This document shows, one piece after another, positions 38,954 to 63,417 of a stretch of 64,000 nucleotides of DNA. The notes beneath the pieces were generated by a model. That model had not been told where the DNA came from. It ran no database searches and saw nothing but the letters and a program-made list of their open reading frames with translations. Both the position numbers and the translations under genes were made by a program. Source of the stretch: a virus (Duplodnaviria; Caudoviricetes); the IMG/VR virus record IMGVR_UViG_3300047159_000056, positions 96,001 to 160,000 of that record. One strand, 5' to 3'. Position 1 is the first letter of the stretch. Each line of letters starts with the position of its first letter.

Positions 38954-39208
38954 TCATTTATTCTCTTCATCAGCATTTCTGTAATATTCATCTATGTCAT
39001 CCTCATCGTCGTCTTCTTCAAACTCATCTGAATCATAATATTGCTGCTGAGTCTGTTGAGGAGGAATAACTGGCTTTCTTATCTCTTCCTCTTCTGGCTG
39101 CTCTGGTTCACCCTCTTTCTTCTTAAATATTAGAGGATGACCAGTTACACCAGTACCTTTTATTTTAATTTCAGGATAAGAAAATTGTTTTATCCTAGGT
39201 AATATCAT
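38954..39208 (-). CDS. KxFS-leader protein with acidic/Gln-rich tail
   Basis: MILPRIKQFS leader; D/E-rich C-terminus. Confidence 0.7.
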   Translation of the reverse strand: MILPRIKQFSYPEIKIKGTGVTGHPLIFKKKEGEPEQPEEEEIRKPVIPPQQTQQQYYDSDEFEEDDDEDDIDEYYRNADEENK

Positions 39209-39978
39209 AATTTCTGCTTAATTAATCTTATGTACTCTTTAACTACAGGATTGTTCATATATGGCTTATAAACTTTAATTAATGCTTCTTTCAAACCACT
39301 TATCTTAGTTCCACCATCAATATCATCTCCTATACTAAACACATCTTCATTGTTCTCACCATTTGCATAAGGAAACCAATTTATAGTATCATATTCACAT
39401 CCTAATATTATAATACTATCATTTTCATCGTCTGAATATTTTGTCCAATTATTTTTAAACTCATTCAAGCTTTTCCTAGTTATTACCGGAGTCATTAGTA
39501 TATAAAGATCTTCATCATTATAACCATTGTCTTTGTAATTCTTAACTAGAGTCGGTACCATTTTTATATTGATATCCATTAGACTTTGAACTTCAGGTGG
39601 AACAGAAAGAGCGTTAATATCTTTCTTATCCTGGTTAAATCTACTAAGTAAAGAAGATTCAGGATTTGTTTGGAATTCATATTTTTCCTTCCTTAACTTG
39701 TTATCTCTATCAATTGCCTTGTTAGATGTATTTGACCAAGTAGATCCTGCTCCAAGTGCTCCTCCAGCTAATGCTCCTATACCAGCACCTATAGCAGCTG
39801 AACCCTTTCTTATACCTTTGCCACCTGCAATTCCACCTATAACTCCACCAGTTAAACCACCACTAAGAGAACCAAGTAAACCATTTCTAACTGTTTGCCC
39901 AATTCTTTGTTTTGTAGTTAGGTGGGATTTGGGTATATATTCTGGAATAGCAAATAATTTTATCCTAGGTAATATCAT
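39205..39978 (-). CDS. KxFS-leader glycine-zipper protein
   Basis: MILPRIKLFA; two GxxxG-rich helices; C-terminal domain paralogous to neighbours. Confidence 0.75.
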   Translation of the reverse strand: MILPRIKLFAIPEYIPKSHLTTKQRIGQTVRNGLLGSLSGGLTGGVIGGIAGGKGIRKGSAAIGAGIGALAGGALGAGSTWSNTSNKAIDRDNKLRKEKYEFQTNPESSLLSRFNQDKKDINALSVPPEVQSLMDINIKMVPTLVKNYKDNGYNDEDLYILMTPVITRKSLNEFKNNWTKYSDDENDSIIILGCEYDTINWFPYANGENNEDVFSIGDDIDGGTKISGLKEALIKVYKPYMNNPVVKEYIRLIKQKL

Positions 39979-40733
39979 AATTTAGCTCTTATTTGTTTTG
40001 AAAATTCTCGTATCATAGGATCGTTATTTCCAATATAGTAAGAAGTTAGCGCTCCCTTAAGTGACCTATAGTCTCCATCTATATCATCTAACATAAATCC
40101 AAATGGCATATCTGAATCAGGAAACCAAGATAAACAATCAGTATTAAACTTGTTCATCTTCAGAATATTAATACCAAAAATAGCGCCATCCTTAAATTTC
40201 TTCAGATCATTATTTATTTCATAAGACTTCTTTGGTATAGGAAGATTATCACCTAGGCAATCTACATCATGAGTCTGTTCATAATATTTCATCATAGTAG
40301 GAATAAAACTAATTTCAATATCCATTAGCTTAATCAAATCTCTACCAGGACCACCAAACTCAATCTTATATAGGTCTCTCTTTCTAATATTAAGTGCCTC
40401 TCTTACATATGGCTCTGGATCTCTAAGAAACTCTCTATATTTTTCTTTGGCTAAGTTTCTGGCTTTTACTGCATTATTACTATCACCAAAGTAAGTCATT
40501 AGAGCAGCAGGTATACCAAGAATAGCACTACCGAGAGCCGCACCTCCAAAGATACTAGACTTCTTTCCTTCTCCAGCACTCCAACCAACTGTAGCTCCCA
40601 TACCAGCACCAACTGCAGCACCTCCTAGACCAGCTAATGAAGCCCTCCTAAGACGATCTTTCTTACTAACAAATTCTTCATCAACTATATCCTCTGGTCT
40701 GACTATATGTGAAAATCGTTTTAAATATATCAT
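39975..40733 (-). CDS. KxFS-leader glycine-zipper protein
   Basis: MIYLKRFS; AGLGGAAVGAGMGATVG; paralogue of 39205..39978 (shared WFP..DDIDG..LK.AL). Confidence 0.75.
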   Translation of the reverse strand: MIYLKRFSHIVRPEDIVDEEFVSKKDRLRRASLAGLGGAAVGAGMGATVGWSAGEGKKSSIFGGAALGSAILGIPAALMTYFGDSNNAVKARNLAKEKYREFLRDPEPYVREALNIRKRDLYKIEFGGPGRDLIKLMDIEISFIPTMMKYYEQTHDVDCLGDNLPIPKKSYEINNDLKKFKDGAIFGINILKMNKFNTDCLSWFPDSDMPFGFMLDDIDGDYRSLKGALTSYYIGNNDPMIREFSKQIRAKL

Positions 40734-40744
40734 AATTTATTTAT

Positions 40745-41380
40745 TTATTTTCCTGTTAATAGGTAAGAGAGATAATCTATGTATTCACTAAGACTCCACT
40801 TTTTATAACTCTTACTGCCAACTATATATTTTGGATCTATATCTTCACCTGATACAAATACTTTTTTATCATAGTCGGGATCAAAACTAAGATAAGCTCT
40901 TTTATAAATATCAGTTTTTCTAAATCTTTCTTTTAATGGTAGTTTCTTAATAGATGGACTCTGCTTTTCTAATTCTAGGTCTACCTTATCTTTAAATCTT
41001 GGTATTTGAGAATAGTAATTAGAAATCCAATAATCAGCAAATTGTTCTGGTGATTGACTAGTATATTTGGAAATAGGATCTCCAACATTCTTCCAAGATT
41101 CATAGACTTTCATAGGTACACTAAGCTTAATAAGAGATTTTCCTTTCCCTGGTTTCATTGGTAAGAAAGATCTTGACTTACTTAAGTATATTCTATCTTT
41201 CCTTTCCTCATCCTTTAGACCAGATCTAGAGGAAGCAGTACCAGGTTTTAAAGTCATCTTCTTTAATAATCCCTTAGAATATATAGAGTCTACATTCTCA
41301 TCTTTTGTCATATGATATAGATTCTTTCTACCACTAATATGCTCCCAAATAGAAAAATCTTTATTTCTTAGCAATATCAT
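40745..41380 (-). CDS. KxFS-leader protein with ADP-ribosyltransferase/Tpt1-like domain
   Basis: MILLRNKDFS; LYHMTKDENVDSIYSKGL, IYLS, DIDPKYI match the H-x-T / [VI]YLS / I.P.YI pattern of ART-fold NAD-using enzymes. Confidence 0.6.
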   Translation of the reverse strand: MILLRNKDFSIWEHISGRKNLYHMTKDENVDSIYSKGLLKKMTLKPGTASSRSGLKDEERKDRIYLSKSRSFLPMKPGKGKSLIKLSVPMKVYESWKNVGDPISKYTSQSPEQFADYWISNYYSQIPRFKDKVDLELEKQSPSIKKLPLKERFRKTDIYKRAYLSFDPDYDKKVFVSGEDIDPKYIVGSKSYKKWSLSEYIDYLSYLLTGK

Positions 41381-42045
41381 AATACTCTATTTACATGTTT
41401 TATATATGCCTTAGATAGTCTACTTTCACTATTATATGGATTTTTATAATAATCATTCAGAGCTTCTTTCAAAGACTTATATGATTTATCAGTTCCATAA
41501 TTATAAGTTTTACTCTTAGTATTATAGTATAGTGCGTCATCAGGATTATCCATCTGAAGAGCCTCTATATCATTGCTCCCAGTATATGTTGGTTCAAATG
41601 TTCCCATAACTGGTATATTAACATAGGCTCGTGGATCTTTAGTTATTCTATATTCTTTAACTATTTCTGGAGTAAATTTCTTTTGATTTTTCATTAACTT
41701 CAGATAATCACTGGATAAATTATATCTTTGGGGAACTATGAATTTTTTGTAGTCGTAGTCATATTTATTGTTGAGACTATTTTCCGCGTCACTCCAATCA
41801 ACATCGGGAGAAACATCGTCATTTCTATGTCTATAAGCATCAATTCCTCCATGTATAGCACCAATAGTTCCACTAATAGCCGATCCAATTAAGGCACCTT
41901 TTCCACCGTCATTTACTGCCCAGCTTCCTATGCCTCCTCCTATTAGTGCACCTCCTATAACTCCGGGAATTGCTTGTATATATGCACCCTTTGCTACTTT
42001 TTTAAATGTACTATCAGAGAAATTTTTTATTCTTGGTAATATCAT
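41377..42045 (-). CDS. KxFS-leader glycine-zipper protein
   Basis: MILPRIKNFS; glycine zipper; close paralogue of 42042..42707. Confidence 0.75.
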   Translation of the reverse strand: MILPRIKNFSDSTFKKVAKGAYIQAIPGVIGGALIGGGIGSWAVNDGGKGALIGSAISGTIGAIHGGIDAYRHRNDDVSPDVDWSDAENSLNNKYDYDYKKFIVPQRYNLSSDYLKLMKNQKKFTPEIVKEYRITKDPRAYVNIPVMGTFEPTYTGSNDIEALQMDNPDDALYYNTKSKTYNYGTDKSYKSLKEALNDYYKNPYNSESRLSKAYIKHVNRVL

Positions 42046-42707
42046 AATACTCTATTTACATGTTTTATATATTCTCTGGATAATCTATCTTTATTTTCTT
42101 TGTTTTTATAGTAATCATTTAAAATGTCTTTTAATGACTTAAATGATTTGTCAGAACCATAATTATAAGTTCTTGTATCCATATTATAAAAGATAGCGTT
42201 ATCTGAGTTTGCCATTTTTAAAAGGAATATATCTTTACTTCCGTTATAGATAGGAGCCAAACTTCCTATTACTGGTATATTAAGATTAGAACTAGGATTT
42301 TTAGTTATCACATATTCTTTAATTATTTCAGGAATAAATTTCTTTTGATTTCCCATAAGCTTAATAAAATCTCTTGGAAGGATATTCTGTTTAGGCATTA
42401 TGAATTTTTTGTAGTCATAATCATACTTACCAGTTAGGCTATTTTCTGCATCATCCCAGTCAATCTTATCGTATCTATGTTTATAAGCATAAATTCCTCC
42501 CAAAATAGACCCAGCTAATCCAGCCCCTGTTCCTACTAATCCTGAGCCTATTAATCTATGGGCCCTTTTTCTTTTGTCCTCTCTATTGGCTGCTTTTTTT
42601 AACTTATTAGCCCACTCCTCATCTTTCTCATCCCAATCTTCTGGTAGAGAATTAGTAAATGTTTTAATTCTCTTATCATTATCAGAGAATAATCTTCTAA
42701 GTATCAT
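42042..42707 (-). CDS. KxFS-leader glycine-zipper protein
   Basis: MILRRLFS; shares DW.DAENSL..KYDYDYKKFI and YIKHVNRVL with 41377..42045. Confidence 0.75.
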   Translation of the reverse strand: MILRRLFSDNDKRIKTFTNSLPEDWDEKDEEWANKLKKAANREDKRKRAHRLIGSGLVGTGAGLAGSILGGIYAYKHRYDKIDWDDAENSLTGKYDYDYKKFIMPKQNILPRDFIKLMGNQKKFIPEIIKEYVITKNPSSNLNIPVIGSLAPIYNGSKDIFLLKMANSDNAIFYNMDTRTYNYGSDKSFKSLKDILNDYYKNKENKDRLSREYIKHVNRVL

Positions 42708-42876
42708 CGCTCCCTGTTAAAAAGTTAAACCCTTTTCTAATAGCTCTCTTGGTTCTGGCACCAGTTCTTACTTCGTTCTCATAGGATTTATAAACTTTTC
42801 CCATAATTCCTCCGCTTCCAGTACCAGCTCCAAGGGTATTATCTTCTGTAAAATACTTTCGTCTCTTAATTAGCAT
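42697..42876 (-). CDS. 59-aa KxFS-leader protein (start reassigned from 42987)
   Basis: ATG at 42876 gives MLIKRRKYFTEDNTLGAGTGSGG.., matching the leader and removing most of the overlap with the upstream gene. Confidence 0.65.
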   Translation of the reverse strand: MLIKRRKYFTEDNTLGAGTGSGGIMGKVYKSYENEVRTGARTKRAIRKGFNFLTGSDDT

Positions 42877-43288
42877 AGTTATTATCACACAGGCTAAACA
42901 GATATTTATATTTATTGATTTCTTGAATAAATGTTTCTGTTTCACTTGATAGACCTTTATATACTGTATCACTAGGGATAGACTCATAAAAATCTGTAGC
43001 TGCGTCTAGAACCTCATCAATGAAAGATACTGCGTCAGATGCTGCTGCTGGAACTGCTTCTACATCATTTGGTCCCATTTTTCCTAAGATTCCCATATAA
43101 CCTTCTGCTACTGTATCCTGATAATCTGATACAATTCCAAGAAAATCATCTAAGTAAGTATGAATATTTTTCTTAGGTGCTGCCCAATGAAGGTTTTTAC
43201 ATTTTGTTTTAAAGCCTTCAAGTTTACCAATGTAGTCTAGGAAAACTCTATTGTCTTCACTATACTGAGTTTGTTTGAATTTAATCAT
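42866..43288 (-). CDS. KxFS-leader (variant) ferritin/Dps-like four-helix-bundle protein
   Basis: MIKFKQTQYS; NLHW..IHTYLDDF..YQDTVAEGYMG matches the Dps-type H-W..H..D..E spacing. Confidence 0.65.
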   Translation of the reverse strand: MIKFKQTQYSEDNRVFLDYIGKLEGFKTKCKNLHWAAPKKNIHTYLDDFLGIVSDYQDTVAEGYMGILGKMGPNDVEAVPAAASDAVSFIDEVLDAATDFYESIPSDTVYKGLSSETETFIQEINKYKYLFSLCDNNYAN

Positions 43289-43290
43289 TT

Positions 43291-43824
43291 CTATTTTATA
43301 TTTTTACATTCTTTTATTAGGGAGATTAAGTAGTCTGTATACTCAATCACCGGGAGATCCACTTTTGATTTTGGATCCCTATTTACTTTTGGTCTATCAT
43401 AATCTTGCTCCCAGTCAGCATTAAGTCGAAACTTTTTATAATTTCTAGAATAAAAACTAATTAGATTTTCTTTAGTTATATCTTCTAGTCTCCCATCAAC
43501 TAACATCATAGGTTTTTCATCTTTTTCGTTCCAAACTATAAGATTATCTGTATCATCGTCCATCACTTCCATGTCTAGCAAGATAAGACAACCAGAATTA
43601 ACTCTCACATCAAAAGAACAAGATTTCTGTAGAACAAATACTGGATCTGTTTCATATACTATGTCAGGTATTTTCTGATATAGACTTTCCAGTTTTTGAT
43701 TATTCATTACCTCTACCAAGTCACTTACTATAGGATTATTTCCAATTAAGCTTTGAGAATTAATAGAACCTTCAACTAGTTTCTTAGAATATGTATCTGA
43801 GAAGTTAATTCTTTTTAGTATCAT
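43291..43824 (-). CDS. KxFS-leader protein, soluble domain distantly like the neighbours' C-terminal domain
   Basis: MILKRINFS; DNLIVWN..LISFY..EYTDYLI; TAG stop. Confidence 0.65.
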   Translation of the reverse strand: MILKRINFSDTYSKKLVEGSINSQSLIGNNPIVSDLVEVMNNQKLESLYQKIPDIVYETDPVFVLQKSCSFDVRVNSGCLILLDMEVMDDDTDNLIVWNEKDEKPMMLVDGRLEDITKENLISFYSRNYKKFRLNADWEQDYDRPKVNRDPKSKVDLPVIEYTDYLISLIKECKNIK

Positions 43825-44419
43825 TTTCTTTCTTTTCTTTTTTTACAGTATGTTTTCCTATAATTTTTCCAATCTGTCTTGCACCATAACCTAGAGCTAT
43901 TGGAACTGCTACTCTAGCCACAGCATTTTTTACAAGTTCAGATTTTCCAAGTCTCTTTGCTTTTTCCAGTTATAATAGTCTTTCCTATATTTTTCCATTT
44001 CTTTTTCATGCTTTTTATACTTATGTAATTGTTTTGCATAGGCATAAGCAGCTAAGCCAATTGGAATAGAAGCTCCTAAGATAGCTCCCTTTCTTCCCGC
44101 TTTTTTAGTTCTTTCACTATTATTTACTTTAATATCTAGAACAGAATCTATTAGTGGTTTCTTTTTATTAATATAGTCCTTTACATTTTCTCCAGCCCTA
44201 TTTACCATGTCATAGAATTCTTTTTTCTGACGTTTCTTAGAAATTGATCTTGCGAGTTGACTAACATTATAAGCACTATAAGGTGTAGTAGGACCAGCTA
44301 ATAAAACTAATCCTGTAGCTGCGGCTGATGGATTTAAAACTCGCTTAGGCATTCTTGGTTTACCAGATTTTTTAGTTTCATCATTAGACTTAGAAGAAAA
44401 TCTTTTTTAGTATTATCAT
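43821..44419 (-). CDS. KxFS-leader membrane protein, broken by two homopolymer indels (track ORF 43930..44352)
   Basis: Removing one A at 44403-44408 gives MIILKRFSSKSNDETKKSGKPRMPK..; adding one A near 43961-43965 extends to ..VAVPIALGYGARQIGK..KERK*, whose TGA overlaps the next ATG (ATGA). Confidence 0.65.
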
Positions 44420-44444
44420 AAGTTTTTATTTTTAAGAGGATTGG

Positions 44445-44469
44445 GAGAAGGGAAGTTAGATCCCCTCTC
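44445..44469 (-). terminator. Stem-loop downstream of the tail tube gene
   Basis: GAGAGGGGA-TCTAACT-TCCCTTCTC (9 bp, one G-U); no clear U-tract. Confidence 0.4.
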
Positions 44470-44479
44470 TTTTTTCCTT

Positions 44480-47359: not shown

Positions 47360-50300
47360 TTATAATATATTTTTTATCTTAGGCAGGGATGAGGTTTTAT
47401 TTAATATAGATTTAGTATTAAAAGATTCTCGCTCCTTTTTAGCTTCATTTGATGCCTTACTAAATATACTTTTCATACTACCAATCTTACCTACAGATAT
47501 TGCTTCTCTAGGATTTTCTCCAACAATACTAAATGTAAGATTAAGATCGCTTCCACCTGGATCTATATCTCCAGATCTTTCTTCACTAAAATCTCTAAGA
47601 ACAACTAGGAGATCATACTTAGATATAGTTTCTAGTTGTGGAGTTAAAGAATATATAATACATCTAAATGTCACATTCTTGTACAAGGCTGGACAAATAA
47701 AAGATTTATCTATTGAAGTCAGTGCTCTTAATTTAACTGGTGTATAGTTTCCATTAGAATATCCATAATACCCTTGATCATGTGGTTCACTACTATAAAC
47801 AGAAGCATCAGCGCATCTTTCAAAGTATGTTCTCCAGGATTTATACTGATCATCTGCTATTGTTAGTCTCAGTTCATTTGTATATTCCATAGAGATAGGA
47901 TAATTTATTTCTCCATCATATAGCCCAAGAGATTTAGAATTCATCTTGCTCTTACTTAGATCAAATGAGGTGAATGGTATCCATTTATTATAGTCAGTAT
48001 TTACTCCATAATGAACCATATTCCAAACATTAATCTCATCTATACTTGGTAGATAAGAATAATATGCATTTTCATAACCAACAAAAGGATCAAATACTAT
48101 TTCCCAGAAAGAATTATCGTCTAAGGTATATACTCTTCCTCCTTTTGCTATATTGGCATTTGAAGTTGAAAATTTATCTACAGTTGTTGAGAATAAACTA
48201 TTTTTTAGAGTATCTTTTAAGTCTTCTACGGATTTTATATCAGATGGATAGGAACCACATAATTCTTGTAGAGTTGTTGTCATTCCCCAAGAGCTAATAT
48301 AATTCTCATGAAAAGTATATGGAGTTTCAGGTATATATCCTAATAATCCTTTACCAAGAGCTGCCTTAGCTGCATTTATTACTTTCTTGAAAAAACTTGT
48401 CTTAGCTACACTAGTTGTAATAGAAGTATCAGTTACATTTGAATGTTTAGTATCATGAATAGAAGTATTTATTCTGTTATTTCCATATTCCCATCCCTCA
48501 GTAGGAGTTTTCTTTTGAGGTCTATTTAATGGGGCCTCAGTATCTACCATAGAACTAGAAGATGCACTTTTCTTTACACTACTTATGATACTTGATAATG
48601 CTCTCTTACCAGCTAATACTACATCACCACTTTGAGCTAAATTTTGAATTACACCAGAATCTTTTCCAGGAAGTCTATCTCTATTGGATTTAGAAGCAAC
48701 TTCACTTACTCTTCTTGCAGCAACTAAGGCCATAAGAACAGTATCGAGCGCCTCTTCTCTAATATTAGTAGTAGTGTCTCCCGGTTTACTTCCTAAAGCC
48801 CACGTACCACTTTTACCAGGAATCCAACTAACAGATTTTTCAGCTAACCATCTAAGATATGTACTGGCGCTTAAGGCATTGCTCCAAGATACATTTAATT
48901 TATACTTAGCCATTTGAACAGTTCCTTGGTCTCTTATTATAGTTCCAAAAAGTTCTGATTCAAATTGCTCTACTTTATCCTGTGTAAGTTCCCCTCCGCT
49001 CAAGTATCTGCTCATAAGAGTTTTTACCTTACTAGCCCAACCTGTATCTAAGTTTTTATTATCTGCAAAATGAAGTAAGTTATCATAGTAAGAATCTAAG
49101 TTATCTCTAGAATTAAATACTTTCTCTAGTTCTTTCTCTTCATCATTTGCAGGACTAATTACTTTTGGTCTAACAGCTTCATCTACATTTCTGCTGGTTA
49201 TTGTTTCTAGTAATTCTTCTTCGCTCTTATCTTTTCCTGTATCTAATCTTGGTTTATCTTTATTTTCTAATCCAGTTTTTACATCTTCTGGACTATAAGA
49301 ATTTACTTTATCTTTTAGGAAATCTTCATCTAAGGTACCATTAGTTGCTTTATCTACTTTCTCATAACTTTTATCTAACTTATCTTGAAATCCAGTATGA
49401 GTAAAATCATCCCTTGTAGTATCTGTTTCAGAATCTCTTTTAAAATTACCTCCAAGGTTTGTTTTAGAAGTATCATCTTTTGAAGCATCCACTAAGGTAC
49501 TACTAAGACTATCTATTGGTGTTTCTTTATCTATATCTTTTACACCAAGTCTAGTATCATAAAGTTGACCATCACTTATATTCTCAAATTGTCCATGATC
49601 AGCCTCACCATTTGTATTAAGCTTACTAGTATCGTCTTTTGTAGCATCTATTAGAGTAGTACTAAGACCAGAATCAGTAGCTTTATTAGTTTCATCTCCT
49701 GGATTAATGGTATGTTTGTCAGTATCAATTACGTCATCCAAGAAAGTACTAAGTGGAGACTCTTTATCTTCTCCTATTACATCTTCTAGCTTATCACTAA
49801 GAGGAGAATCTTTATCACTACCTATTACATCATCTAAGAAAGTACTAAGTGGAGACTCTTTGTCACCTCCTATTATATCTTCTAGATCAGTACTTAAGGT
49901 AGCTTCATCAGGATTTGTTCCAGATGTTGTACTTTGACTAATATTCTCTAGGTCTGTACTAAGAGGATTATTACTTTCTACATAATTATCAACTGGCTCT
50001 AGTTTTGTACTTAGACTAGAGGGATCATTACTATCTCCCTGAACCTTTTCTACATTTCCCTCTAAGCTAGGATCTTCTCCTGGGTCTATCTTACTAACAT
50101 AGTCACTAAGAGGGGATTCTTTATCTTCTCCAAGTAAATTTTCTACCTCAGTACCTAGTGGGACATCTATATTAGTTGTTCCTATTATATCCTCTCGCTC
50201 TGTACCTAAGGGAACATCTATATTAGTGGTACCAATAATATTCTCTCGCTCTGTACCTAAGGGAACATCTATATTAGTAGTACCAATAATATTCTCTCGC

Positions 50301-52033
50301 TCTGTACCTAGTGGGACGTCTATATTAGTAGTACCTATTATATCCGGTCTCTCTGTACCTAAGGAAACATCTATGTTGGTAGTTCCGATAATATTAGGTC
50401 TTTCACCATCTAGATTTGTTATACTATCATTTCCATTTCCAGGATCTAATTTTATAGATTCTGTTTTAAATTTATCAGAAACAGTAGTATCTAAGGTATC
50501 AGAATTTCCAGCACCTAATTTCTCTAAGGTTCCAGATATATTGTTATCCGATTCAGTATAATTCTCTACTTTTTCACTAGGTTCAGATCCAAGTTCTATA
50601 TCACTAGGCTTAGGTTCTATATCTATTAAGTTTGCCTTAAGAGAGTCTAAGTCTTGAGGATTTTCTATTTTTTCTACATCTGTACCTAGGGGAACATCAA
50701 TGTTAGTAGTACCTATTATATCCGGTCTCTCTGTACCTAAGGAAACATCTATGTTGGTAGTTCCGATAATATTAGGTCTTTCAGTACCTAGAGAAACATC
50801 TTTATCTTTTCCTACAACTTTTTCTAATTCTGTACCTAGGGAAGTATCTTTATTTGTTCCAACTATGTTTTCTAAGTCAGTACCTAAGGGAACATCTATA
50901 TTAGTAGTGCCCTCTATATTTTCCAAGATAGAATCTAAAGAAGTATCAGAAATAGAACCAACTATCTTTGATGCATCTGTTCCTAAGCTAGTATCCTTAA
51001 TTGAACCTAGGATAGAATCTTTTTCACTACTAAGACTTACTTCTTTCTTACCCGATTCATTAAGCTTTTGTAGTTCTTTTCCAAGTTCTGCATCGCTTGT
51101 CTCACCATTGATATTTTCTCTGATCCCGCTAAGTGAAGTTGTCTCATCTTTGGTATTGGAAACTTTATCGAGAAAGGAGGATAGTGAATCACCACTTTCT
51201 TCCCCTCCAATTATATTTTCTCTTTTACCTTCTAGACTAGGATCTTCTGACTTTCCAGTTATTTTCTCTAAGTCTGTTTCAAGAGCTGTTTCTGTTTGTT
51301 TACCTAAGACTTTATCTATAGTTCCAGATAATTCTTTGGGATCATTAAGTTTATTTTCTACTTTTTCTAAGTCTCCATCTAAGGAAGTTATCTTAGTATC
51401 TTTCCCTTCTATCCTAGTAACCCCTTTTTCGAGACTACTAGGGGAATGTGTACTTCCAATAAGCTCAGATGCACTAGAACTTTTAATTTCTTTCTCCGCT
51501 AAAGTCTCAGAACTCTTAGAATTTTTTATTTTTTCAATTTCTGATTCTAGAGTCTTTAACTTATCCTTTGAATTTATAATAGGAGAGACTTGTTCTGATA
51601 GTGTATTATCTTCCTTTGGTGAGAGTATTTCTTTAAACTTGCTAAGAGACTCAATATCTTTAGTACCAGGCTCTATATCCTCTAAGTTATTTCCTAGAGA
51701 AGGGTCTTTTCCTATATTTATATCAAGTCTCTTTCCTTCAAGTTTATCTATATTTTTATTAGAGGCTATCCACTCTTTTTCACTAACTAATTTGGAAACC
51801 TCTTTACCACCTTTATTTAAGACTTCTAATTTATCACTAAGGCTATTTATTTCCTTAATGGAACCGTATCTTCTTCCACTTACCTCTAGATTATCCTTTC
51901 CGAGTTCAGTGTGTTCATCTACTAGTTCTCTATTTTTCTTTAAATATTTACTAAGGGCTAGTATTTCCTCTGGTTTTGTAAATCTATCACAACCTGTCTG
52001 GATCTTATTTTCTTTTCTAATTTCTGTATCCAT
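47360..52033 (-). CDS. Giant acidic repeat protein with C-terminal tube-fold-like domain
   Basis: 1557 aa; many 16-17-aa repeats (GTERENIIGTTNIDVPL; DKESPLSTFLDDVIG); C-terminal ELRLTIADDQYKSWRTYF resembles tube-family proteins. Confidence 0.7.
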   Translation of the reverse strand: MDTEIRKENKIQTGCDRFTKPEEILALSKYLKKNRELVDEHTELGKDNLEVSGRRYGSIKEINSLSDKLEVLNKGGKEVSKLVSEKEWIASNKNIDKLEGKRLDINIGKDPSLGNNLEDIEPGTKDIESLSKFKEILSPKEDNTLSEQVSPIINSKDKLKTLESEIEKIKNSKSSETLAEKEIKSSSASELIGSTHSPSSLEKGVTRIEGKDTKITSLDGDLEKVENKLNDPKELSGTIDKVLGKQTETALETDLEKITGKSEDPSLEGKRENIIGGEESGDSLSSFLDKVSNTKDETTSLSGIRENINGETSDAELGKELQKLNESGKKEVSLSSEKDSILGSIKDTSLGTDASKIVGSISDTSLDSILENIEGTTNIDVPLGTDLENIVGTNKDTSLGTELEKVVGKDKDVSLGTERPNIIGTTNIDVSLGTERPDIIGTTNIDVPLGTDVEKIENPQDLDSLKANLIDIEPKPSDIELGSEPSEKVENYTESDNNISGTLEKLGAGNSDTLDTTVSDKFKTESIKLDPGNGNDSITNLDGERPNIIGTTNIDVSLGTERPDIIGTTNIDVPLGTERENIIGTTNIDVPLGTERENIIGTTNIDVPLGTEREDIIGTTNIDVPLGTEVENLLGEDKESPLSDYVSKIDPGEDPSLEGNVEKVQGDSNDPSSLSTKLEPVDNYVESNNPLSTDLENISQSTTSGTNPDEATLSTDLEDIIGGDKESPLSTFLDDVIGSDKDSPLSDKLEDVIGEDKESPLSTFLDDVIDTDKHTINPGDETNKATDSGLSTTLIDATKDDTSKLNTNGEADHGQFENISDGQLYDTRLGVKDIDKETPIDSLSSTLVDASKDDTSKTNLGGNFKRDSETDTTRDDFTHTGFQDKLDKSYEKVDKATNGTLDEDFLKDKVNSYSPEDVKTGLENKDKPRLDTGKDKSEEELLETITSRNVDEAVRPKVISPANDEEKELEKVFNSRDNLDSYYDNLLHFADNKNLDTGWASKVKTLMSRYLSGGELTQDKVEQFESELFGTIIRDQGTVQMAKYKLNVSWSNALSASTYLRWLAEKSVSWIPGKSGTWALGSKPGDTTTNIREEALDTVLMALVAARRVSEVASKSNRDRLPGKDSGVIQNLAQSGDVVLAGKRALSSIISSVKKSASSSSMVDTEAPLNRPQKKTPTEGWEYGNNRINTSIHDTKHSNVTDTSITTSVAKTSFFKKVINAAKAALGKGLLGYIPETPYTFHENYISSWGMTTTLQELCGSYPSDIKSVEDLKDTLKNSLFSTTVDKFSTSNANIAKGGRVYTLDDNSFWEIVFDPFVGYENAYYSYLPSIDEINVWNMVHYGVNTDYNKWIPFTSFDLSKSKMNSKSLGLYDGEINYPISMEYTNELRLTIADDQYKSWRTYFERCADASVYSSEPHDQGYYGYSNGNYTPVKLRALTSIDKSFICPALYKNVTFRCIIYSLTPQLETISKYDLLVVLRDFSEERSGDIDPGGSDLNLTFSIVGENPREAISVGKIGSMKSIFSKASNEAKKERESFNTKSILNKTSSLPKIKNIL
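49730..49895. repeat. 48-bp coding repeats (DKESPLSTFLDDVIG type)
   Basis: aagaaagtactaagtggagactcttt occurs at about 49740 and 49836 (96 bp apart), with a variant unit between. Confidence 0.75.
50151..50405. repeat. Five tandem 51-bp coding repeats (17 aa)
   Basis: Unit approximately tctgtacctaagggaacatctatattagtagtaccaataatattctctcgc; related units continue at 50681-50920; 50325..50405 is identical to 50703..50783 (81 bp). Confidence 0.9.
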
Positions 52034-54173: not shown

Positions 54174-54800
54174 TTATCTTCTTACAGGTACCATTCCAGT
54201 TGGTACACTCATCCTACCATATCCACTTTCCATAGTATTACCTATAGACTTAATGGTTGTCTTATTATTTCTTAGAGATTTGCTAAAGTTAGTTTTGCCA
54301 TACCTATCAGATACTTTTTTCATAGCCCTAATGGCTCTATTTGGCATAAGAGGAACTTTTTGAACTACTGGAATTGCTGCACTATAACCAGGAGCAGTTA
54401 ATGCAGCGCCAACAGGACCACCAATAGCTAAACCAACTGGAGTAGTTACTTGAGATGCAGCAGCTACTATTGCTACGTCAGGTCTTTGTATAGCAGTCTT
54501 TATTCCATTATCAACTACTCTTCCTATTGGAGTATTAACTACATTATTTACTCCTTGTTTTATTTCTACTGCTTCCCTATTAAGAGCCACTCCCTTTTTA
54601 GGAGAAAATCTAAATGCATCCGCAGGACTATTAACTGGCCTCTTTCCAAACATCCCTTTTACAGTTCTTTTGACAGAATCTCCAGCTCTTAAACCAGCAT
54701 TATCTATCTTAGTCATGGTATTAGAATTGGCTAGTTTTCTATATTGTCTTACTAATCTTAGCGATTTGCTAGAATAAGTTTTATCTCGTAATATTATCAT
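54174..54800 (-). CDS. KxFS-leader basic membrane-associated protein
   Basis: MIILRDKTYS; paralogue of 54807..55421 (MTKIDNAGL, VVNTPIG.VVD.GI, RPDVA, VQK.PL). Confidence 0.75.
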   Translation of the reverse strand: MIILRDKTYSSKSLRLVRQYRKLANSNTMTKIDNAGLRAGDSVKRTVKGMFGKRPVNSPADAFRFSPKKGVALNREAVEIKQGVNNVVNTPIGRVVDNGIKTAIQRPDVAIVAAASQVTTPVGLAIGGPVGAALTAPGYSAAIPVVQKVPLMPNRAIRAMKKVSDRYGKTNFSKSLRNNKTTIKSIGNTMESGYGRMSVPTGMVPVRR

Positions 54801-56258: not shown

Positions 56259-56270
56259 AAAAAGTATATA

Positions 56271-58788
56271 TTAAATTTGTCCAGTAAATGCAAGACCCAT
56301 ATCCAAAGCTTCATTGTAAACCTCAATGAACTTAAGACTTCTATTGAATCTGACTTCTATTAGAACTTTCATCCTGTTTGCTCTCTTATCCTCGTCTGTA
56401 TTTAGATCTGCGATTGTAATTCTATAATCGTCAATCGTGTACTGCATCGGTAGGATATTCTGAATAAACCAGTAATCGATCACACTATATGCATCAGAAT
56501 AAAGAGTATCCGTAATATGTCTTCCATGGAATTGACGTAACAGTCTTGGCATTGATTTACTAATTCTAATCATAAGTCTAGAATTACCATCTTCGTCAAG
56601 GATATTATTTTCACTTTCCTTTGTATAGGCATCATTCATAACCCAAGTCTGAATTTGAGTATCCCACATTACTGTATTGATTCTCTTAGAGAGTAGAAGC
56701 TGTCTTTGTCTCTTATTAAATTCAACAACAGGAGACTGCATCTGTGCAACTGCTCTCTGACCAAACATAGACATGAACTCTCTATCAAGTCCTCTATTTC
56801 TATTAACTGATTCCCAATAGATTGTTGAAGGAGCTGCATAGAACTTAAATCCTACTGTGCCAGTATCAACATCCCAAGGAGCTGAGCAATATAATTTATA
56901 GTGGTCTTTAGCCAATCTATTTACTGAGTTTGCAATAGCTAGATAGTTAGTACTATTTACAGTAGAAGCTGCATAGAAGTAGTTACTATTAATAGCCATG
57001 TTAGCCATATAAGACTGGAAAATGCCATTAGTATTTCCAAGGTCTGCTAATCCTTCTGTCTGATATACCTCGTCATCATCAATCTTATCGAGAGCTTTGA
57101 GAAGGTTAATATCAGTTACATTCAAGATATCATACTTAGTTGGATTGATGCTAAGATCAACATAGATTTCCTCAGGTTCAACATCAGTTACCACCTTATA
57201 CTGATAATAAGTTCCAGCAACGTCAGTACCAATCTTAGCGTAATCTCCTTCTTTAGGATTAGTTACAACAGTTGTTAGTTCTGTTTGAGAAGTTGCAGTA
57301 TAGCTAATTGTACCAGAAGCTGTAGTGATATCAGTTAGAGTCGTAGGAACCCACTGTCCACTTGTATACTTAAGATATGTTGCGTTAACTTTACCAACTA
57401 GAGCATAATCACCTTCTTTTGGATTAGTAATATTAGCCAGAGTCTTCCTTAGTTGATACTGCATTCCCATCAGCAATTGTTACACCTGTTGGAGCCGTAG
57501 TAAGAGCAACCCATCCTGTTTTCTTGTCATCAGATACATAGCCATAATAGTCAAGACCTAAGTCTAACATATTATCTGGCAGCTGAACCTGGATCATATT
57601 TAAGAGAGCATTAAGTTCTGCCTCTGTCATATCTCCACGACCAGTGATCTTACCAACATTATAATATTCAGGAATTCCACTTACACTAGGATCTAAGATA
57701 GCTAGCTCATAGAAGTCACGATCAGTAATTGTTGTGCTTAAGACACCACCATTAGCTGCCTTGCTCTTTGCATATGTAGCCAGGACTGATTCTAGTACAA
57801 TATAAGGAGAGTCACCACCAGCATCTGCACTATTTGTACTTAGTTCTTTTGTAACTACTGCATCATGATTGAATCTACGAATTCTAAGCTTAAGATCGCT
57901 ACTAGAATTATAAGCATTAGTTGCATAATTAGGAACATCATCAAAAGAAGATACTGTTACTAAGTCAACTAAGTGCTGATTCTTATTTGTTTCATAAGTC
58001 CAATCAGGTTCACAGATAACTACATAAGATACACCATTAGGGCATCTTGAATCAGTTGTATCAAGGAAGTCCGAGCCAATGTAAACTTCACTAAAGATTA
58101 CACTAGTTGCTGCTGTTGTAACTGAACCGTCTGCATTAATAGCAATTTCTGAAGTACCCTTTTCGTCAGAGTAGAACTTATAGCTAGGTGAGAAGAACTT
58201 AGGAGAATCATTTAAGAAATCAACAAGTTCCTGAAGGTTCTGTACATAATAGTCATACTGAGCACCGGCATCAGTAGTTCTATTACCAATTACACCAACA
58301 TCACCAACTGCAAGACCCCAACCGTCTGTGCTATGTTCTGCGCTATCCTTATCTTCATCAACCACAATCTTGAAAGACTGAACTTTCTTAAGTAATTGAC
58401 CATCTTTTAGGATATATACATTTTTATCTGTCTTACTAAGTGGTTTAGCAAAGTAGATATTGTCACCTTTGAATGCTCTAACAATCAGCAAATTACCAGC
58501 ACCAGCTAATCTATAAGCATTAAGCCACATAGTAGATGCAACAGTGTCTTTACCATTTCCATACAGTGTATCAATAGCTGTCATATAATCTTCTGTTAAA
58601 TCTTTAGAAGCATATGTAGCCAAGAACTCTTTCTGGGATGTAATAAGTGTTGGAGTACTTGGACCAGCATCAGATACAATAGTACATCCGACAATTAGAT
58701 CTTCTCCAGCTGTAGGATTGATAGCAGCAGTTCTAATTTTCTCATGAACGTGAATATACGGTTCAAGAGTTTCTTTCCATTGTGCCAT
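56271..58788 (-). CDS. Major contractile tail sheath protein, split by a one-base insertion near 57440 (track ORFs 57433..58788 and 56271..57476)
   Basis: N-terminal EPYIHVHE..AGPSTPTLITSQKEF; C-terminal RINTV..NSRLMIRI..NRMKVLIEVRF..LKFIEV. Removing one base in GAA GAC TCT GGC TAA gives STKEDLANITNPKEGDYA, matching the downstream repeat TELTTVVTNPKEGDYA; 838 aa. Confidence 0.85.
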
Positions 58789-58820
58789 ATTTAATTTATT
58801 TCTTTCTTTTTATACATTAT

Positions 58821-59507
58821 TTAACCAACCTCTACTATATAAATGGGATAGCCAGACTTAATAAATGAATTAGCAATCTCTGATACTAGATCTGAATCAT
58901 TTGTCTTTCCTCCCGATATGGTAGATACAACTATTTCATTGAATTTATCTGACGTGGTATTTGTTTTAATCGCTCCATTAGGTACATTCTTAGAAATTTT
59001 GTCAGTTAATGTTTTTAGTTTATAGTCATTTACAGTATTAATTAAGATCTTTAGGTCATTACTGTATTTATAGATAGCAATGCATACCTTCGTCTTAAGT
59101 TCAGATGCAGCCTTGGGATCTCTTGTAAAATCAATTCCTTCTCTGAATCCTTTTCTCTTAAGATCTGAGATAATTTCTTTCATCATTCTATTATCTACAG
59201 TAGTTGACCTATTGAACTTTTCATTAATATCTCTAACAGCACCACATAAAGCTCCTAATGCTGCTCCAAGGATTAATCCACCACCAGTGATAGCTAAAGA
59301 TCTACGATTAAATCCTCCGCCCATTTGATCATTCTTCTCATTAGAATCTGTCTTTAGGTACTTACTGAGGAATGGTATCTTATCACCAAGACTAGTATGA
59401 CCTAGGACAGCAGAAGATAATGCTCCTGTAGCTGCACCAATCTTAGCCCCATTTAATGTATCAGAGATAATATGACTACTAAATTCTTTTGCTCTAAATT
59501 TAATCAT
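58821..59507 (-). CDS. KxFS-leader glycine-zipper protein
   Basis: MIKFRAKEFS; GAKIGAATGAL and GGGLILGAALGALCG. Confidence 0.75.
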   Translation of the reverse strand: MIKFRAKEFSSHIISDTLNGAKIGAATGALSSAVLGHTSLGDKIPFLSKYLKTDSNEKNDQMGGGFNRRSLAITGGGLILGAALGALCGAVRDINEKFNRSTTVDNRMMKEIISDLKRKGFREGIDFTRDPKAASELKTKVCIAIYKYSNDLKILINTVNDYKLKTLTDKISKNVPNGAIKTNTTSDKFNEIVVSTISGGKTNDSDLVSEIANSFIKSGYPIYIVEVG

Positions 59508-59525
59508 AGTCTTTTATACTAGGTA

Positions 59526-59765
59526 TTAAGGATTGGTTGTTGTAGTACCTGATCCTGTTGTTTCTGCTTTAGTTGTACCAATCATAGATACAGTACCATT
59601 GTTATTCTGCTCTTTAACAGCTACGTCAAGAATATCAGAAATAACTTCATCATTGTTTACATCTTCCACAGTAGCAGAAACGATTGCATCATTAACAGTA
59701 GTAGTTGCAGTTCCACCAACAATGTAATACTTCTCTTCGTCGGCGGTTAAACTTCTATTTTCCAT
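59526..59765 (-). CDS. Small acidic Thr-rich protein without the leader
   Basis: 79-aa ORF filling the gap between two leader-family genes. Confidence 0.55.
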   Translation of the reverse strand: MENRSLTADEEKYYIVGGTATTTVNDAIVSATVEDVNNDEVISDILDVAVKEQNNNGTVSMIGTTKAETTGSGTTTTNP

Positions 59766-59782
59766 AATAGTTTATATTTTAT

Positions 59783-60163
59783 TTAGTTATTATCATTACC
59801 AATTCTTCTATGTCTACCTAAGAAACTAGAATTCTTCTTTTTCTTTGGTTGCTGAACTGGCTCCTCTACATGATTTTTATTGAAATTATCCATTGAAGAA
59901 CTAACTCTATTCATTGTAGATGATGTATTCTGTAATTCATTAGTTAGTTTATTCATGGCATCCAACTGCTTATCTTGATAAATTTTATCACTTGCTTTTT
60001 TGTGCTTGGCATCTAGATAGTAAGCTGTTGATAAACCTAAAGAACCCATACCCATAATAGGAGTACCATATTCTTTAAAGGCTCCCCAACCTTTTTTTAA
60101 TCCGCCCTGTACCTTTTTACCAATAATAGCGGCTGAGAATTCTTTTGCTCTGAACCTTATCAT
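59783..60163 (-). CDS. KxFS-leader single-helix membrane/coiled-coil protein
   Basis: MIRFRAKEFS; GTPIMGMGSLGLSTAYY then a coiled coil. Confidence 0.75.
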   Translation of the reverse strand: MIRFRAKEFSAAIIGKKVQGGLKKGWGAFKEYGTPIMGMGSLGLSTAYYLDAKHKKASDKIYQDKQLDAMNKLTNELQNTSSTMNRVSSSMDNFNKNHVEEPVQQPKKKKNSSFLGRHRRIGNDNN

Positions 60164-60181
60164 AATTCTTTGCTTTTGAGA

Positions 60182-60598
60182 TTAATAGGAGTATCCATCT
60201 CTATTAACCATATTATTTACCCAGTCTTTTCTTTCTCTTCTACCAGCTTGTCTCTTAGCATATGCTAGTCTACTATTAAAGAAATTATTTTCCTGAGCTT
60301 GTTTTCTGCCTTTCAAGTAGGATAGGCCTGCACCAATACCTGCACCTAAGAGAGCTCCCTTCTTAGAACCTAGGAGCATGCCTTTACCAATACCTCCACC
60401 AGCTTTTGAAAATCCTCCCAATACTGTACCAACTGCGGCACCACCTAGAGTACCAGTTATAGCACTTCCGGCAATATCTCCATAATTATGTGTTGGCCTT
60501 TTCTGAGTAGCTAAGATATCGGCATCTTTCATTCTCTTGAGATTGTCTGTATCATCCCATTGAGTAAATATTTTCCTTTTTAAAGTATATTTTGCCAT
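60182..60598 (-). CDS. KxFS-leader glycine-zipper protein
   Basis: MAKYTLKRKIFT; two glycine-zipper helices. Confidence 0.75.
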   Translation of the reverse strand: MAKYTLKRKIFTQWDDTDNLKRMKDADILATQKRPTHNYGDIAGSAITGTLGGAAVGTVLGGFSKAGGGIGKGMLLGSKKGALLGAGIGAGLSYLKGRKQAQENNFFNSRLAYAKRQAGRRERKDWVNNMVNRDGYSY

Positions 60599-60612
60599 AA
60601 TTATTTACTTAG

Positions 60613-61848
60613 TTATTGAATAGGAGGTTGATAGTATTGCTGCATATCTTGTTGCTGCTGTTGAACTTGTTTATCTTTAAAGTCTTGATACTTGAATGCA
60701 TTAGGATCAATTGCTCTAGTAGCCTTATCCATAGCCTTCTGTCCGCCTTCCCATCCTACTTTCATCATACCCATACCAACAGGAATAGAAGCAGCCAAGG
60801 CAATCTTAGAAGGCTGAACAACTCCATTCTTATCCAGGAAAGTCATTTTCTTAGCCATAGCCTGTGTCCAACTAGATTTTCCATGTAGTTTAAGATCTTC
60901 AGCAACTGCTTTTACCCCGGCCTTTCCACCTCCCATTGAAAGGTTGGATGCCGTTCCAAGAAGTGTTTGCGCAGGATGATCTCTAAATGTTTTAAATCCA
61001 CTTTTTGTAGCATTCCAGGCAGCCGATGCTCCCTTTTTTATATTTGCTGGTCCATTTTTAAAGAAATTACTAGCTACTGATTTTATTCCATTCATTCTAA
61101 CTAGCCTCATTACTGATGCAGGACTAGCATACTGTTTCTGCTGAGGACCACTAATACCGCTAAGAACTGAGCCCACTTGCTGATCTGGTAATTCTGTGCT
61201 GGCTAATTGATCTTTTATAGCTCTCTTGTCAGCTTTATATGCCATTACAGCAGGAATTGCAGTTAAACCACCAAAAGCTAGAGTCGAAGTCATATTATTT
61301 TTTATAGCTCTTCTTCCAACTTTTAGCCCTCTCCTAGTTGTATCTCCCATAAGTGATGCAAGAGAATATGATTTAGTTCCCGGTTGACTTTGATCTTCGC
61401 CAGTCATAACATCTGTAAGACCACTTTTCTTCATATCATGCTGTATATATTTATTGGCACCATAACCTGCTAATGACATTCCAGCACCAGATACTAAGAG
61501 CCCAGCCATTTTTCCTTTATGTCTACTAGCTAAACCAACCATATCCTTTACAAATAGTTTTCCATTCTTCAGGGTAGTTGGATTAATTAGACCATAAAAT
61601 TTTTCGTGTGGTTTATTTTGCATAATATCTGGAATTTGTCCAACTGCGCTAGGATCTTTTCCAACCTTCTCGGCAATATTATCCAATCTTCTATTCTGTT
61701 CTTTCATAAGATCTGCTTGTCTACTTGCTTCTTCTGCATTTTGTTCATCTGATTTCTTTTGCTGAGCTACACCTAATAATGAACTACCAACTAAGGCACC
61801 ATTTATTAGGAGAGGCAGGAAGAATATTTTTTGTCTGTACCTTATCAT
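60613..61848 (-). CDS. KxFS-leader multi-unit (polyprotein-like) membrane protein
   Basis: MIRYRQKIFF; internal EKFYG, TKSYS and QKQYA each precede a basic amphipathic segment and a hydrophobic helix. Confidence 0.75.
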   Translation of the reverse strand: MIRYRQKIFFLPLLINGALVGSSLLGVAQQKKSDEQNAEEASRQADLMKEQNRRLDNIAEKVGKDPSAVGQIPDIMQNKPHEKFYGLINPTTLKNGKLFVKDMVGLASRHKGKMAGLLVSGAGMSLAGYGANKYIQHDMKKSGLTDVMTGEDQSQPGTKSYSLASLMGDTTRRGLKVGRRAIKNNMTSTLAFGGLTAIPAVMAYKADKRAIKDQLASTELPDQQVGSVLSGISGPQQKQYASPASVMRLVRMNGIKSVASNFFKNGPANIKKGASAAWNATKSGFKTFRDHPAQTLLGTASNLSMGGGKAGVKAVAEDLKLHGKSSWTQAMAKKMTFLDKNGVVQPSKIALAASIPVGMGMMKVGWEGGQKAMDKATRAIDPNAFKYQDFKDKQVQQQQQDMQQYYQPPIQ

Positions 61849-61868
61849 ATATTTCCCTCCTATTTTAT

Positions 61869-62165
61869 TTAGCTCTGGAGAGAATCACTTGCAGACTTTA
61901 GACCTTTACCTAATCCTCTTACAGCAGCACCTTCTACACCAGCACCAACTACACGTCCTAAGATTTCTCCTCCTGGAACACCTAGTCCTGATAGAGTCGA
62001 TCCTATAAATCCACCTACTGGACCCATAGCACCGTGAGCTGCACCAGCAATAGCAGCAGGGGTAGAATCAAGAGCTTTGCCAACTCCTCCAGCTACTCCA
62101 CCTATTGTATTTTGAGCCGCCTCAGCAAATCCAAATGTTTTTCTTTTTAAATGATATGTTGCCAT
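61869..62165 (-). CDS. KxFS-leader glycine-zipper protein
   Basis: MATYHLKRKTFG; almost entirely G/A-rich helices. Confidence 0.75.
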   Translation of the reverse strand: MATYHLKRKTFGFAEAAQNTIGGVAGGVGKALDSTPAAIAGAAHGAMGPVGGFIGSTLSGLGVPGGEILGRVVGAGVEGAAVRGLGKGLKSASDSLQS

Positions 62166-62167
62166 AA

Positions 62168-62398
62168 TTATTCTTTCAAATCATTTATGTTAATTCCTCT
62201 ATTCATCATGGAATTCATATTTCTGACCTCTTTACCAATATCCCCTATTCTAGATAATTCACGATGAGAAGTTTTCATTCTACCAAGACGATCGAGGTCT
62301 GTATCATACTTTCTTCCCTTAATAAATCCAAACTGTGAACCAGCATTAGTATTTAATATCTGATTACTAGAATATTGTTTATTTCTTAAGATAATCAT
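62168..62398 (-). CDS. KxFS-leader small basic protein
   Basis: MIILRNKQYS. Confidence 0.7.
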   Translation of the reverse strand: MIILRNKQYSSNQILNTNAGSQFGFIKGRKYDTDLDRLGRMKTSHRELSRIGDIGKEVRNMNSMMNRGININDLKE

Positions 62399-62402
62399 TA
62401 TT

Positions 62403-63047
62403 TTAATCCCCCAATAAATATATCTTATAGTTAAGCCCGAACGGTAATATATTAAGAGCAGCTATTGCATCTTGTATACTGTCAAACTCTAGCACTAATG
62501 ATCTGCCAGGCTTATCATATTTTATTGCATCTCCTAAGAGTTTATGCACTGTCTTAGTTACATTGAAGTTTGGAGAGAATCTTGCGGAAGTAAATGGTGC
62601 CGGACCTTTCTTTTTATCATCAAAGCACTTAGTAGTAGGTCCATTAATAGACTCAGTTTCACTAAATTTCTTTCCACCCTTTCCTTGATTCTGGTTGTTA
62701 TTATTATCCCCACCTGGAGCTTTCTTTGCAAACAATCCATTATCAATATTTAAAGATAGGTTACCAAGTCTTTCGTCATAATATTTACCAGGTAGTCTTA
62801 CTTCATCTGGCATCTTAGCTCTTGCCCCAATCTTTAGATACATTCTGTATTTATCTTTTCCAAAGAAGGAAGTGCTAATTACAAAACGTTCTATTACTAT
62901 ATTATTTCCTCTGAGTATAGGAATAAGAGAAGATTTATCTATAATAGGAAATCTCTGTTTATCATAATTTGTCAGCTTCATAAGTTCCACATATAGTGAT
63001 CTCATAGCATCATACTCAGAAAATGTCTTTTCTCTAAATTTTATCAT
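62403..63047 (-). CDS. KxFS-leader soluble protein
   Basis: MIKFREKTFS; internal GGKKFS after an N/Q/G-rich linker. Confidence 0.7.
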   Translation of the reverse strand: MIKFREKTFSEYDAMRSLYVELMKLTNYDKQRFPIIDKSSLIPILRGNNIVIERFVISTSFFGKDKYRMYLKIGARAKMPDEVRLPGKYYDERLGNLSLNIDNGLFAKKAPGGDNNNNQNQGKGGKKFSETESINGPTTKCFDDKKKGPAPFTSARFSPNFNVTKTVHKLLGDAIKYDKPGRSLVLEFDSIQDAIAALNILPFGLNYKIYLLGD

Positions 63048-63417
63048 AAACTAATGATAAGTTAAAATGTGGATTCAAACCTAAGATCTCTATAATATCT
63101 AGAGCTATTCCTATGAAGTCTGTTTCCGCTGTTATTATTCTTTTGGAAGTATCAATATCAGTTATTCTCATTCTGAATTTCTCGGTAAGTAATTTTTTTA
63201 CATACCCGTATACCTCTTTGCTCTGAAGCTTTATCTGATAGTATCCCTTTCCTGTCTTAATAAACGATAATAATACCATTGCCTTAGAATTTAGTTTACT
63301 AGTCTTGTCAGCTTCATCTAGAGATATCTTATTATAACCTATTCTCTCGTCATCCAGTCTTTTAATAGCTTCTGGCATTAGATCTTCCTCAAGAGTTTTT
63401 GGTCTAAATTTAATCAT
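63034..63417 (-). CDS. Protein with variant KxFS leader
   Basis: MIKFRPKTLE. Confidence 0.6.
   Translation of the reverse strand: MIKFRPKTLEEDLMPEAIKRLDDERIGYNKISLDEADKTSKLNSKAMVLLSFIKTGKGYYQIKLQSKEVYGYVKKLLTEKFRMRITDIDTSKRIITAETDFIGIALDIIEILGLNPHFNLSLVYDKI

Follow-up and report, generated by a model that had tools for sequence, protein, structure and literature searches.

A shared N-terminal leader and recurring K/R-x-F/Y-S sites suggest a variant head-protease system in an uncultured giant phage

A short leader shared by genes of the head and neck module

We analyzed a 64,000-nucleotide stretch of phage DNA (the window), which comprises positions 96001–160000 of the linear 207-kb virus record IMGVR_UViG_3300047159_000056; a window coordinate equals the genome coordinate minus 96000. 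The record has 32% G+C and is estimated to be 56% complete, and the runs containing the phage sequence are bioreactor sludge and wastewater metagenomes. Judging from its sequence, the virus is an uncultured giant phage and a relative of phages that are abundant in the human gut. The minus strand of the window carries tail and neck genes, with the head genes just past the window end. The subject of this study is a leader found at the start of many of these genes, consisting of Met, two to four aliphatic residues, Arg or Lys, and then K-x-F/Y-S. A previous reading, made from the window's letters and predicted reading frames (the sequence-only reading), counted 22 such genes in three blocks. All 22 N-termini were found on the minus strand in these blocks, except that block 3 includes one leaderless gene and that the gene at 63034–63417, like its orthologs, keeps the leader's front half and has no F/Y-S. 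The features are as follows (window coordinates).

38954..44419, minus strand: block 1, ten consecutive leader genes (starts 39208, 39978, 40733, 41380, 42045, 42707, 42876, 43288, 43824, 44419), including four related glycine-zipper proteins
38954–39208, minus strand: leader gene with an acidic tail
40745–41380, minus strand: possibly ART-like leader gene
42866–43288, minus strand: Dps/ferritin-like leader gene
43930..44419, minus strand: leader gene interrupted by a surplus base at 44403 (assembly error); other assemblies give 162 aa
52486..55421, minus strand: block 2, four leader genes (starts 52872, 54164, 54800, 55421; those at 54800 and 55421 are paralogs)
58821..63417, minus strand: block 3, eight leader genes (starts 59507, 60163, 60598, 61848, 62165, 62398, 63047, 63417) and the leaderless gene 59526–59765
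60613..61848, minus strand: apparent polyprotein of 411 aa, with the leader and three internal sites
63034..63417, minus strand: half-leader gene
63414..64000, minus strand: end of a 378-aa leaderless gene at the window edge

The frameshift in the gene starting at 44419, for which an indel repair had been proposed, is an assembly error. One surplus base at 44403, in an A run, is absent from the short-read contigs of three other runs, and without it the gene is a 162-aa open reading frame (ORF) with a normal leader. The stretch at 43822–43930, after the stop of this gene, resembles coding sequence in another frame; the other assemblies list no indel there (a repeat adjoins), and it is possibly a degenerate gene end.

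In the leader logo, Lys occupies position −2 in 30 of 34 sequences, Phe or Tyr follows in all 34, and Ser stands at +1 in 23, with mostly small residues in the others and no conserved Glu. When a profile trained on 21 window leaders was scored on every other ORF of the record, 15 held-out genes at genome 160.5–179.2 kb scored 12.4–21.1 and the next best gene 3.0; by this profile, the leader is absent from ~200 other genes. Together with two further genes broken by poly-G runs, these 15 take the set beyond the first count, to 36 intact leader genes in the record and ~40 tagged proteins overall. A strict leader pattern was present in 28 of 58 head/neck-region ORFs compared with 3 of 201 others (Fisher p 3e-18), and in 11 of 27 held-out head-region genes beyond the window compared with the same 3 of 201 elsewhere (p 2e-9). 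Within the record, the leader is thus confined to the head/neck module and is not equally frequent at other N-termini.

The proteins behind the leaders had been described as often unrelated, and the 36 intact genes indeed form 27 body clusters by BLASTP (the family counts here and below used low-complexity masking and may over-split). The Dps-like body matched phrog_858 (E 1e-10) and the glycine-zipper bodies matched PF13441 (E 7e-7), in agreement with the sequence-only reading; the ART-like label is a lead only, to a possible ADP-ribosyltransferase. A connection to Gratiaviridae, considered because of the Dps gene, was dropped, as the paper on that group gave none. None of Pfam, PHROGs, and NCBIfam yielded a model of the leader.

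The same motif in head-core proteins

The genes just past the window end encode the head core (genome coordinates).

161316–162770, minus strand: major capsid protein, 484 aa, with a site at residues 57–60
162794–165322, minus strand: acidic scaffold, 842 aa from ATG, probably with a GTG start six codons earlier
165351–166226, minus strand: Zn-ribbon core protein, 291 aa
166213–167454, minus strand: gp21-fold prohead protease candidate, 413 aa, with H49, S134, and D160 and four linker sites
170076–171770, minus strand: portal candidate, by position only
174415–176283, minus strand: terminase
Between 160551 and 179177, minus strand: the 15 further leader genes

Counting K/R-x-F-S after residue 16, with the expectation taken from shuffles and the terminase left out, we found 20 sites in the scaffold, protease, capsid, Zn-ribbon protein, and portal candidate compared with 0.7 expected. 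The scaffold alone has 10 against 0.09 expected, whereas the tail/baseplate genes have 3 against 6.0 expected. Because the motif was defined from the window leaders and the head core lies outside the window, this enrichment is an independent test. Whether capsid and scaffold proteins carry the motif had been left as a check by the sequence-only reading; both do, and the scaffolds of 16 relatives contain 7–14 K/R-x-F-S each.

The 484-aa protein is identified by its structural model as the capsid protein: the nearest shells are those of P1, S6, and T4, with the P1 head the best structural match. Its K-x-F-S closes a predicted helical N-terminal prodomain, in which helices spanning residues 3–58 run into a disordered stretch (51–64) that contains the site. 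Furthermore, each of the 15 family members has the site, which separates a variable N-terminal part from a nearly invariant body.

In the 411-aa protein, internal K/R-x-F/Y-small sites lie near residues 85, 161, and 240 and recur in ten orthologs (33 seen vs. 10.6 expected in 11 sequences), so that the gene product appears from its sequence to be a polyprotein cut at the motif. Searches of Pfam, PHROGs, and NCBIfam gave no useful match for the capsid protein, protease, or terminase and only a sub-threshold one for the scaffold. Co-variation of Lys and Arg between leaders and scaffold sites was also looked at; the numbers were too small for a claim.

A gp21-fold prohead protease candidate

Could the head operon itself encode an enzyme for such sites? 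A prohead protease, which had been proposed as a search target, was found as a gp21-fold candidate encoded past the window end. Its model (pLDDT 83) has T4 gp21 as the best PDB match over the first 185 residues (5JBL, top match, Z 12.7, rmsd 2.5, 133 residues aligned), and it also matches many prohead proteases among viral models. His49, Ser134, and Asp160 are invariant in 89 homologs, and the four K/R-x-F/Y-S linker sites after the catalytic domain, which lie in low-confidence parts of the model, are kept in 84–89 of the 89. A PDB profile search with the protease alignment gave no match, and a phiAGATE protease match (E 0.03) proved to be an unrelated gene. Co-folding of the protease domain with capsid residues 42–72 scored 0.06, which speaks neither for nor against cutting.

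The C-terminal residues 257–405 form a conserved helical bundle that clearly matches no fold (best Z 7.2) and is a candidate for a scaffold- or leader-binding part. Protease homologs of 199 and 256 aa also occur, on contigs of up to 599 kb; they may be intron-split or come from much larger phages.

Conservation of the leaders and sites in relatives

The search yielded 263 protease homologs, many on 200–385-kb contigs, and 75 viral loci. At 18 representative loci, the leader was found on 178 of the 453 ORFs that lie within 10 kb of the protease, and the leader genes of these loci and of this genome fall into 112 families, of which 92 were seen once and about six are conserved. The layout of leaders plus head-core sites is kept in 18 relatives, including gut phages with the Jug (jumbo gut) signature; among orthologs, the leader letters vary and the motif stays. 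In block 3, the genes starting at 60598, 61848, 62165, 62398, and 63047 are kept across relatives.

More distant capsid proteins (20–40% identity) mostly keep Phe/Tyr plus a small residue at the boundary, and the most distant group has lost the basic residue, which makes the aromatic-small pair the stable core of the motif. In a distant relative whose capsid protein is 36% identical, glycine-zipper genes start with a leader variant of their own and the scaffold contains ten F-S/A sites; another distant phage has 18 F-S/A sites with no fixed basic residue. Since the pair is stable, a cut between its two residues is favored, and we consider cleavage after the aromatic residue probable. Cleavage after Lys or Arg is an unlikely alternative; cutting after Lys is known from HK97 and SPO1-like phages. 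An N-degron reading, with a cut before Phe/Tyr, was dropped because it would destabilize the capsid protein.

Matches to cultured phages were limited to a C-terminal capsid match and terminase matches of 24–28%, and queries with the distant capsid proteins gave no cultured match. An Atlas search with a conserved 214-aa protein gave nothing usable.

Comparison with known systems

In phage T4, a capsid-targeting sequence is present on IPI–IPIII, and gp21 processes gp22/gp67/gp68, gp23, and Alt; there are many scaffold cuts, a capsid propeptide, self-processing of the protease, and 10-residue propeptides on internal proteins (PMC9026906). The present system resembles T4 in having an N-terminal propeptide-like leader of about 10 residues on unrelated late proteins, a gp21-fold serine protease encoded in the head operon, a motif that recurs in the scaffold, where the capsid propeptide would end, and behind the protease domain, a predicted capsid propeptide of similar length, a three-residue motif of the P3-x-P1 style, and, as predicted from the linker sites, protease self-processing. 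These positions (scaffold, the end of the capsid prodomain, and the region after the protease domain) are where the T4 protease cuts, which supports T4-like processing. On the other hand, the motif here is basic-x-aromatic-small rather than Leu/Ile-x-Glu, and the leader has no conserved Glu; ~40 genes are tagged compared with a handful in T4, many with glycine-zipper bodies; and divergence puts the capsid protein, protease, and terminase out of reach of Pfam and PHROG matches. The absence of Leu/Ile-x-Glu makes this a variant of the T4 capsid-targeting/gp21 system and not a member, and the sequence-only reading was right to call it analogous to, but different from, the T4 sequence.

Head maturation by phiKZ gp175 and SPN3US gp245 (PMC9026906, PMC10052503) and by P1 Pro, with a packaging signal in DarB (PMC9024508), offers further parallels. 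In these phages, the prohead protease trims many head and ejection proteins at redundant sites; SPN3US and P1 share the P3-x-P1 pattern followed by Ser, with Ser preferred at P1′ in SPN3US and the P1 cut at E120-S121. All three, however, cut after Glu, and the SPN3US propeptides are mostly long, with no short common leader. The protease Prp cleaves L27 and the capsid and scaffold leaders of staphylococcal phage 80alpha at the motif M-L-x-x-(D/N)-L-Q-(F/L)-F followed by A (PMC9405229), so that it too removes a short N-terminal leader between an aromatic and a small residue. It differs in being a host cysteine protease with another motif that acts on few proteins, and not on dozens of phage genes or at internal sites. 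PF04327 (Prp) had no match in the record at its estimated 56% completeness.

Another parallel is with the Jug phages of Bacteroides/Phocaeicola, described in PMC12880540 as having genomes of 360–402 kb with RpoC. Many gut relatives fit the published Jug signature (350–400-kb records, capsid proteins 99.8% and terminases 41% alike, an outgroup that has a 95% capsid and a P-type ATPase, and split protease and portal genes), having been identified by signature and not by accession, and these putative Jug loci carry the same leaders and sites. The capsid protein of the present phage is 77% identical to theirs, below the ~95% level, and the phage comes from sludge and wastewater rather than from the gut; on these grounds it appears to be a relative of the Jug phages and not a Jug phage. 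PF00623 (RpoC) had no match in the 207-kb, partly (56%) complete record. From the Jug relatives, the likely host group is Bacteroidota. A term search of the main text of PMC12880540 returned no leader or cleavage motif, and a literature search, mostly outside subscription journals, found no paper describing the motif.

At the putative Jug loci L019, L020, L023, L037, and L070 (~10001–11600), short insertions interrupt the protease, portal, and terminase genes; for three gut loci, the split protease genes gave no match to a group I intron model in Rfam.

Proposed mechanism

Starting from the observed motif, its enrichment, positions, and conservation and from the modeled protease and capsid folds, and taking T4, P1, phiKZ, and SPN3US as precedent for cutting, targeting, and ejection, we propose that the leader is a short propeptide that would bring unrelated late proteins into the assembling prohead core. 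The gp21-fold serine protease would then cut K/R-x-F/Y-S, most likely after the aromatic residue. The same cuts would shred the acidic scaffold and the Zn-ribbon core protein, take ~59 residues off the capsid protein, divide one polyprotein, and detach the C-terminal part of the protease from the protease domain. The processed proteins would remain in the head with the DNA, many of them probably being ejected on infection.

We put at about 70% the probability that the phage has a capsid-targeting and prohead-protease system of the T4 kind whose specificity is basic-x-aromatic and not Leu/Ile-x-Glu. There is good support for the motif as a head-protease site, and the phage's own gp21-fold enzyme is very likely what cuts it. 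That the leader also addresses proteins to the prohead is, taken jointly with the cutting, a likely conclusion of our analysis; the ejection of many leader products we hold with less confidence. The half-leader gene at 63034–63417 is a candidate for a targeted-but-uncut protein, which agrees with a division between targeting and cutting elements like that in the T4 sequence; it is a single case.

Several points weigh against this interpretation. No virion, proteome, or cultured member was found. IME392, the nearest cultured phage by terminase and capsid, has Glu-Ser repeats and no leaders, so that no precedent was found for a basic-x-aromatic specificity. The portal candidate has no conserved site. 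A Glu four residues past the capsid site is also conserved in close relatives, and the capsid protein may instead be cut at Glu. Several leader genes belong to the conserved core, and their products may build the head or neck instead of being cargo for ejection. Finally, the genome also encodes ClpP (genome 181562–182266; PF00574, E 9e-50).

Alternative explanations

If the motif were an uncut docking element for the capsid, the scaffold, or the helical bundle of the protease, or were cut with no targeting role, its repetition in the scaffold would be accounted for, since repeated short scaffold motifs can be binding sites; the conserved gene that keeps the leader front without F/Y-S and the leaders ending in F-F or F-G, which deviate from the core-protein sites, point the same way. 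The sites at the capsid prodomain boundary, right after the protease domain, in disordered linkers, and at the polyprotein borders nevertheless look like cut sites, and we regard docking as improbable. Cleavage by another enzyme is more improbable still. The ClpP gene does lie beside the module, at 181.6–182.3 kb. A host enzyme such as Prp is another candidate, since its cut in L27-type leaders falls between Phe and Ala and its motif likewise places an aromatic P1 near residue 9 before a small P1′ (PMC9405229). It is, however, the gp21-fold protease that sits within the scaffold–capsid operon and itself carries four sites. The leaders do not contain the Leu-Gln-Phe-Phe core found in Prp substrates, their logo shows Lys at −2, and the phyla listed for Prp in PMC9405229 do not include Bacteroidota.

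The sequence-only reading had left two destinations open, the virion and a membrane compartment. The sites in the scaffold, at the capsid boundary, and in the protease linker lend good support to the first, as an address or cleavage site for the capsid. Routing to the host membrane or a secretion route might be suggested by the basic leader and by the bodies, many with glycine zippers or hydrophobic helices and many rich in Gly/Ala. This branch is unsupported and very unlikely, because the motif is shared with soluble head-core proteins, saturating the scaffold and protease, and because the leaders, as had been stated, have no h-region: their two to four aliphatic residues are followed by basic ones, whereas a Sec, Tat, or lipoprotein signal has its hydrophobic h-region after a basic n-region. 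The best hydrophobic window in nearly all leader proteins lies downstream of the leader and is weak in many, and soluble Dps-like and acidic bodies are tagged too. A by-product at the DNA or RNA level, through copying of 5′ ends or, the genome being AT-rich, through an A/U-rich translation start, has the least to recommend it. Some paralogs do share upstream sequence (starts 41380 and 42045), but the motif is written with both TTT and TTC for Phe and both TCN and AGT for Ser, and Tyr can stand for Phe; such synonymous and disjoint codons show that selection works on the peptide. The ~200 other genes of the same composition have no leader, the internal copies are in frame, and the orthologs vary the letters and keep the motif, which largely refutes this explanation.

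Wider implications

The tag-and-cut logic is known from T4; what sets the present case apart is a putative tag/cleavage motif with a basic-x-aromatic rule. Could a widespread family of jumbo phages, the gut Jug phages included, use a Phe/Tyr-cutting prohead protease and a single tag to load dozens of fast-exchanged proteins, many of them glycine-zipper helices that are matured in the head and ejected as a membrane-active kit, for instance to make a passage through the host envelope or to switch off defenses? We consider this broad reading rather doubtful at present. If the proposed T4-like system is right, a four-residue rule would label the virion-internal proteome of a large, uncultured, and mostly unannotated phage family, in which the tagged ORFs near the protease span over 100 sequence families in 18 relatives. 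It would also predict exact mature N-termini that could be found in existing gut virome proteomics, provide a prohead protease of apparently new specificity that could be assayed without phage culture, and mean that the T4 logic is used at a much larger scale with different chemistry.

Additional observations

Five paralogs at genome 167572–176849 have a longer leader of ~30 residues with two tandem sites around an acidic spacer; relatives have 2–4 copies. The record has just two long G/C runs, which read as 12 and 11 G on the coding strand (genome 177534–177545 and 180795–180805); they sit right after the leader codons of two related genes and throw both out of frame, which may reflect phase variation or assembly error. 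In relatives (L004, L005, L022, L032, L034 four times, and L053), runs of 8–12 G precede leader genes by 40–60 bases and are often followed by a C-run with which they could pair. The head module also contains a GNAT acetyltransferase (genome 179158–179817), which in this genome is fused to a C-terminal segment with a site; its homologs in L004, L005, L006, and L023 begin with a sequence like the front half of the leader.

Pfam did not confirm the sheath and tube labels of the sequence-only reading. The putative sheath gene (window 56271–58788) is split by a one-base assembly error near 57440, the base being absent from four other assemblies, and window 47360–52033 encodes a 1557-aa protein with a long array of ~15-residue acidic repeats, whose C-terminal part may be tube-like. 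An IMPDH/GMP reductase-like gene lies at window 33881–34975, and an ORF judged by eye to be IF-1-like at genome 40783–41070; IF-1A and ClpP are reported from Jug phages too.

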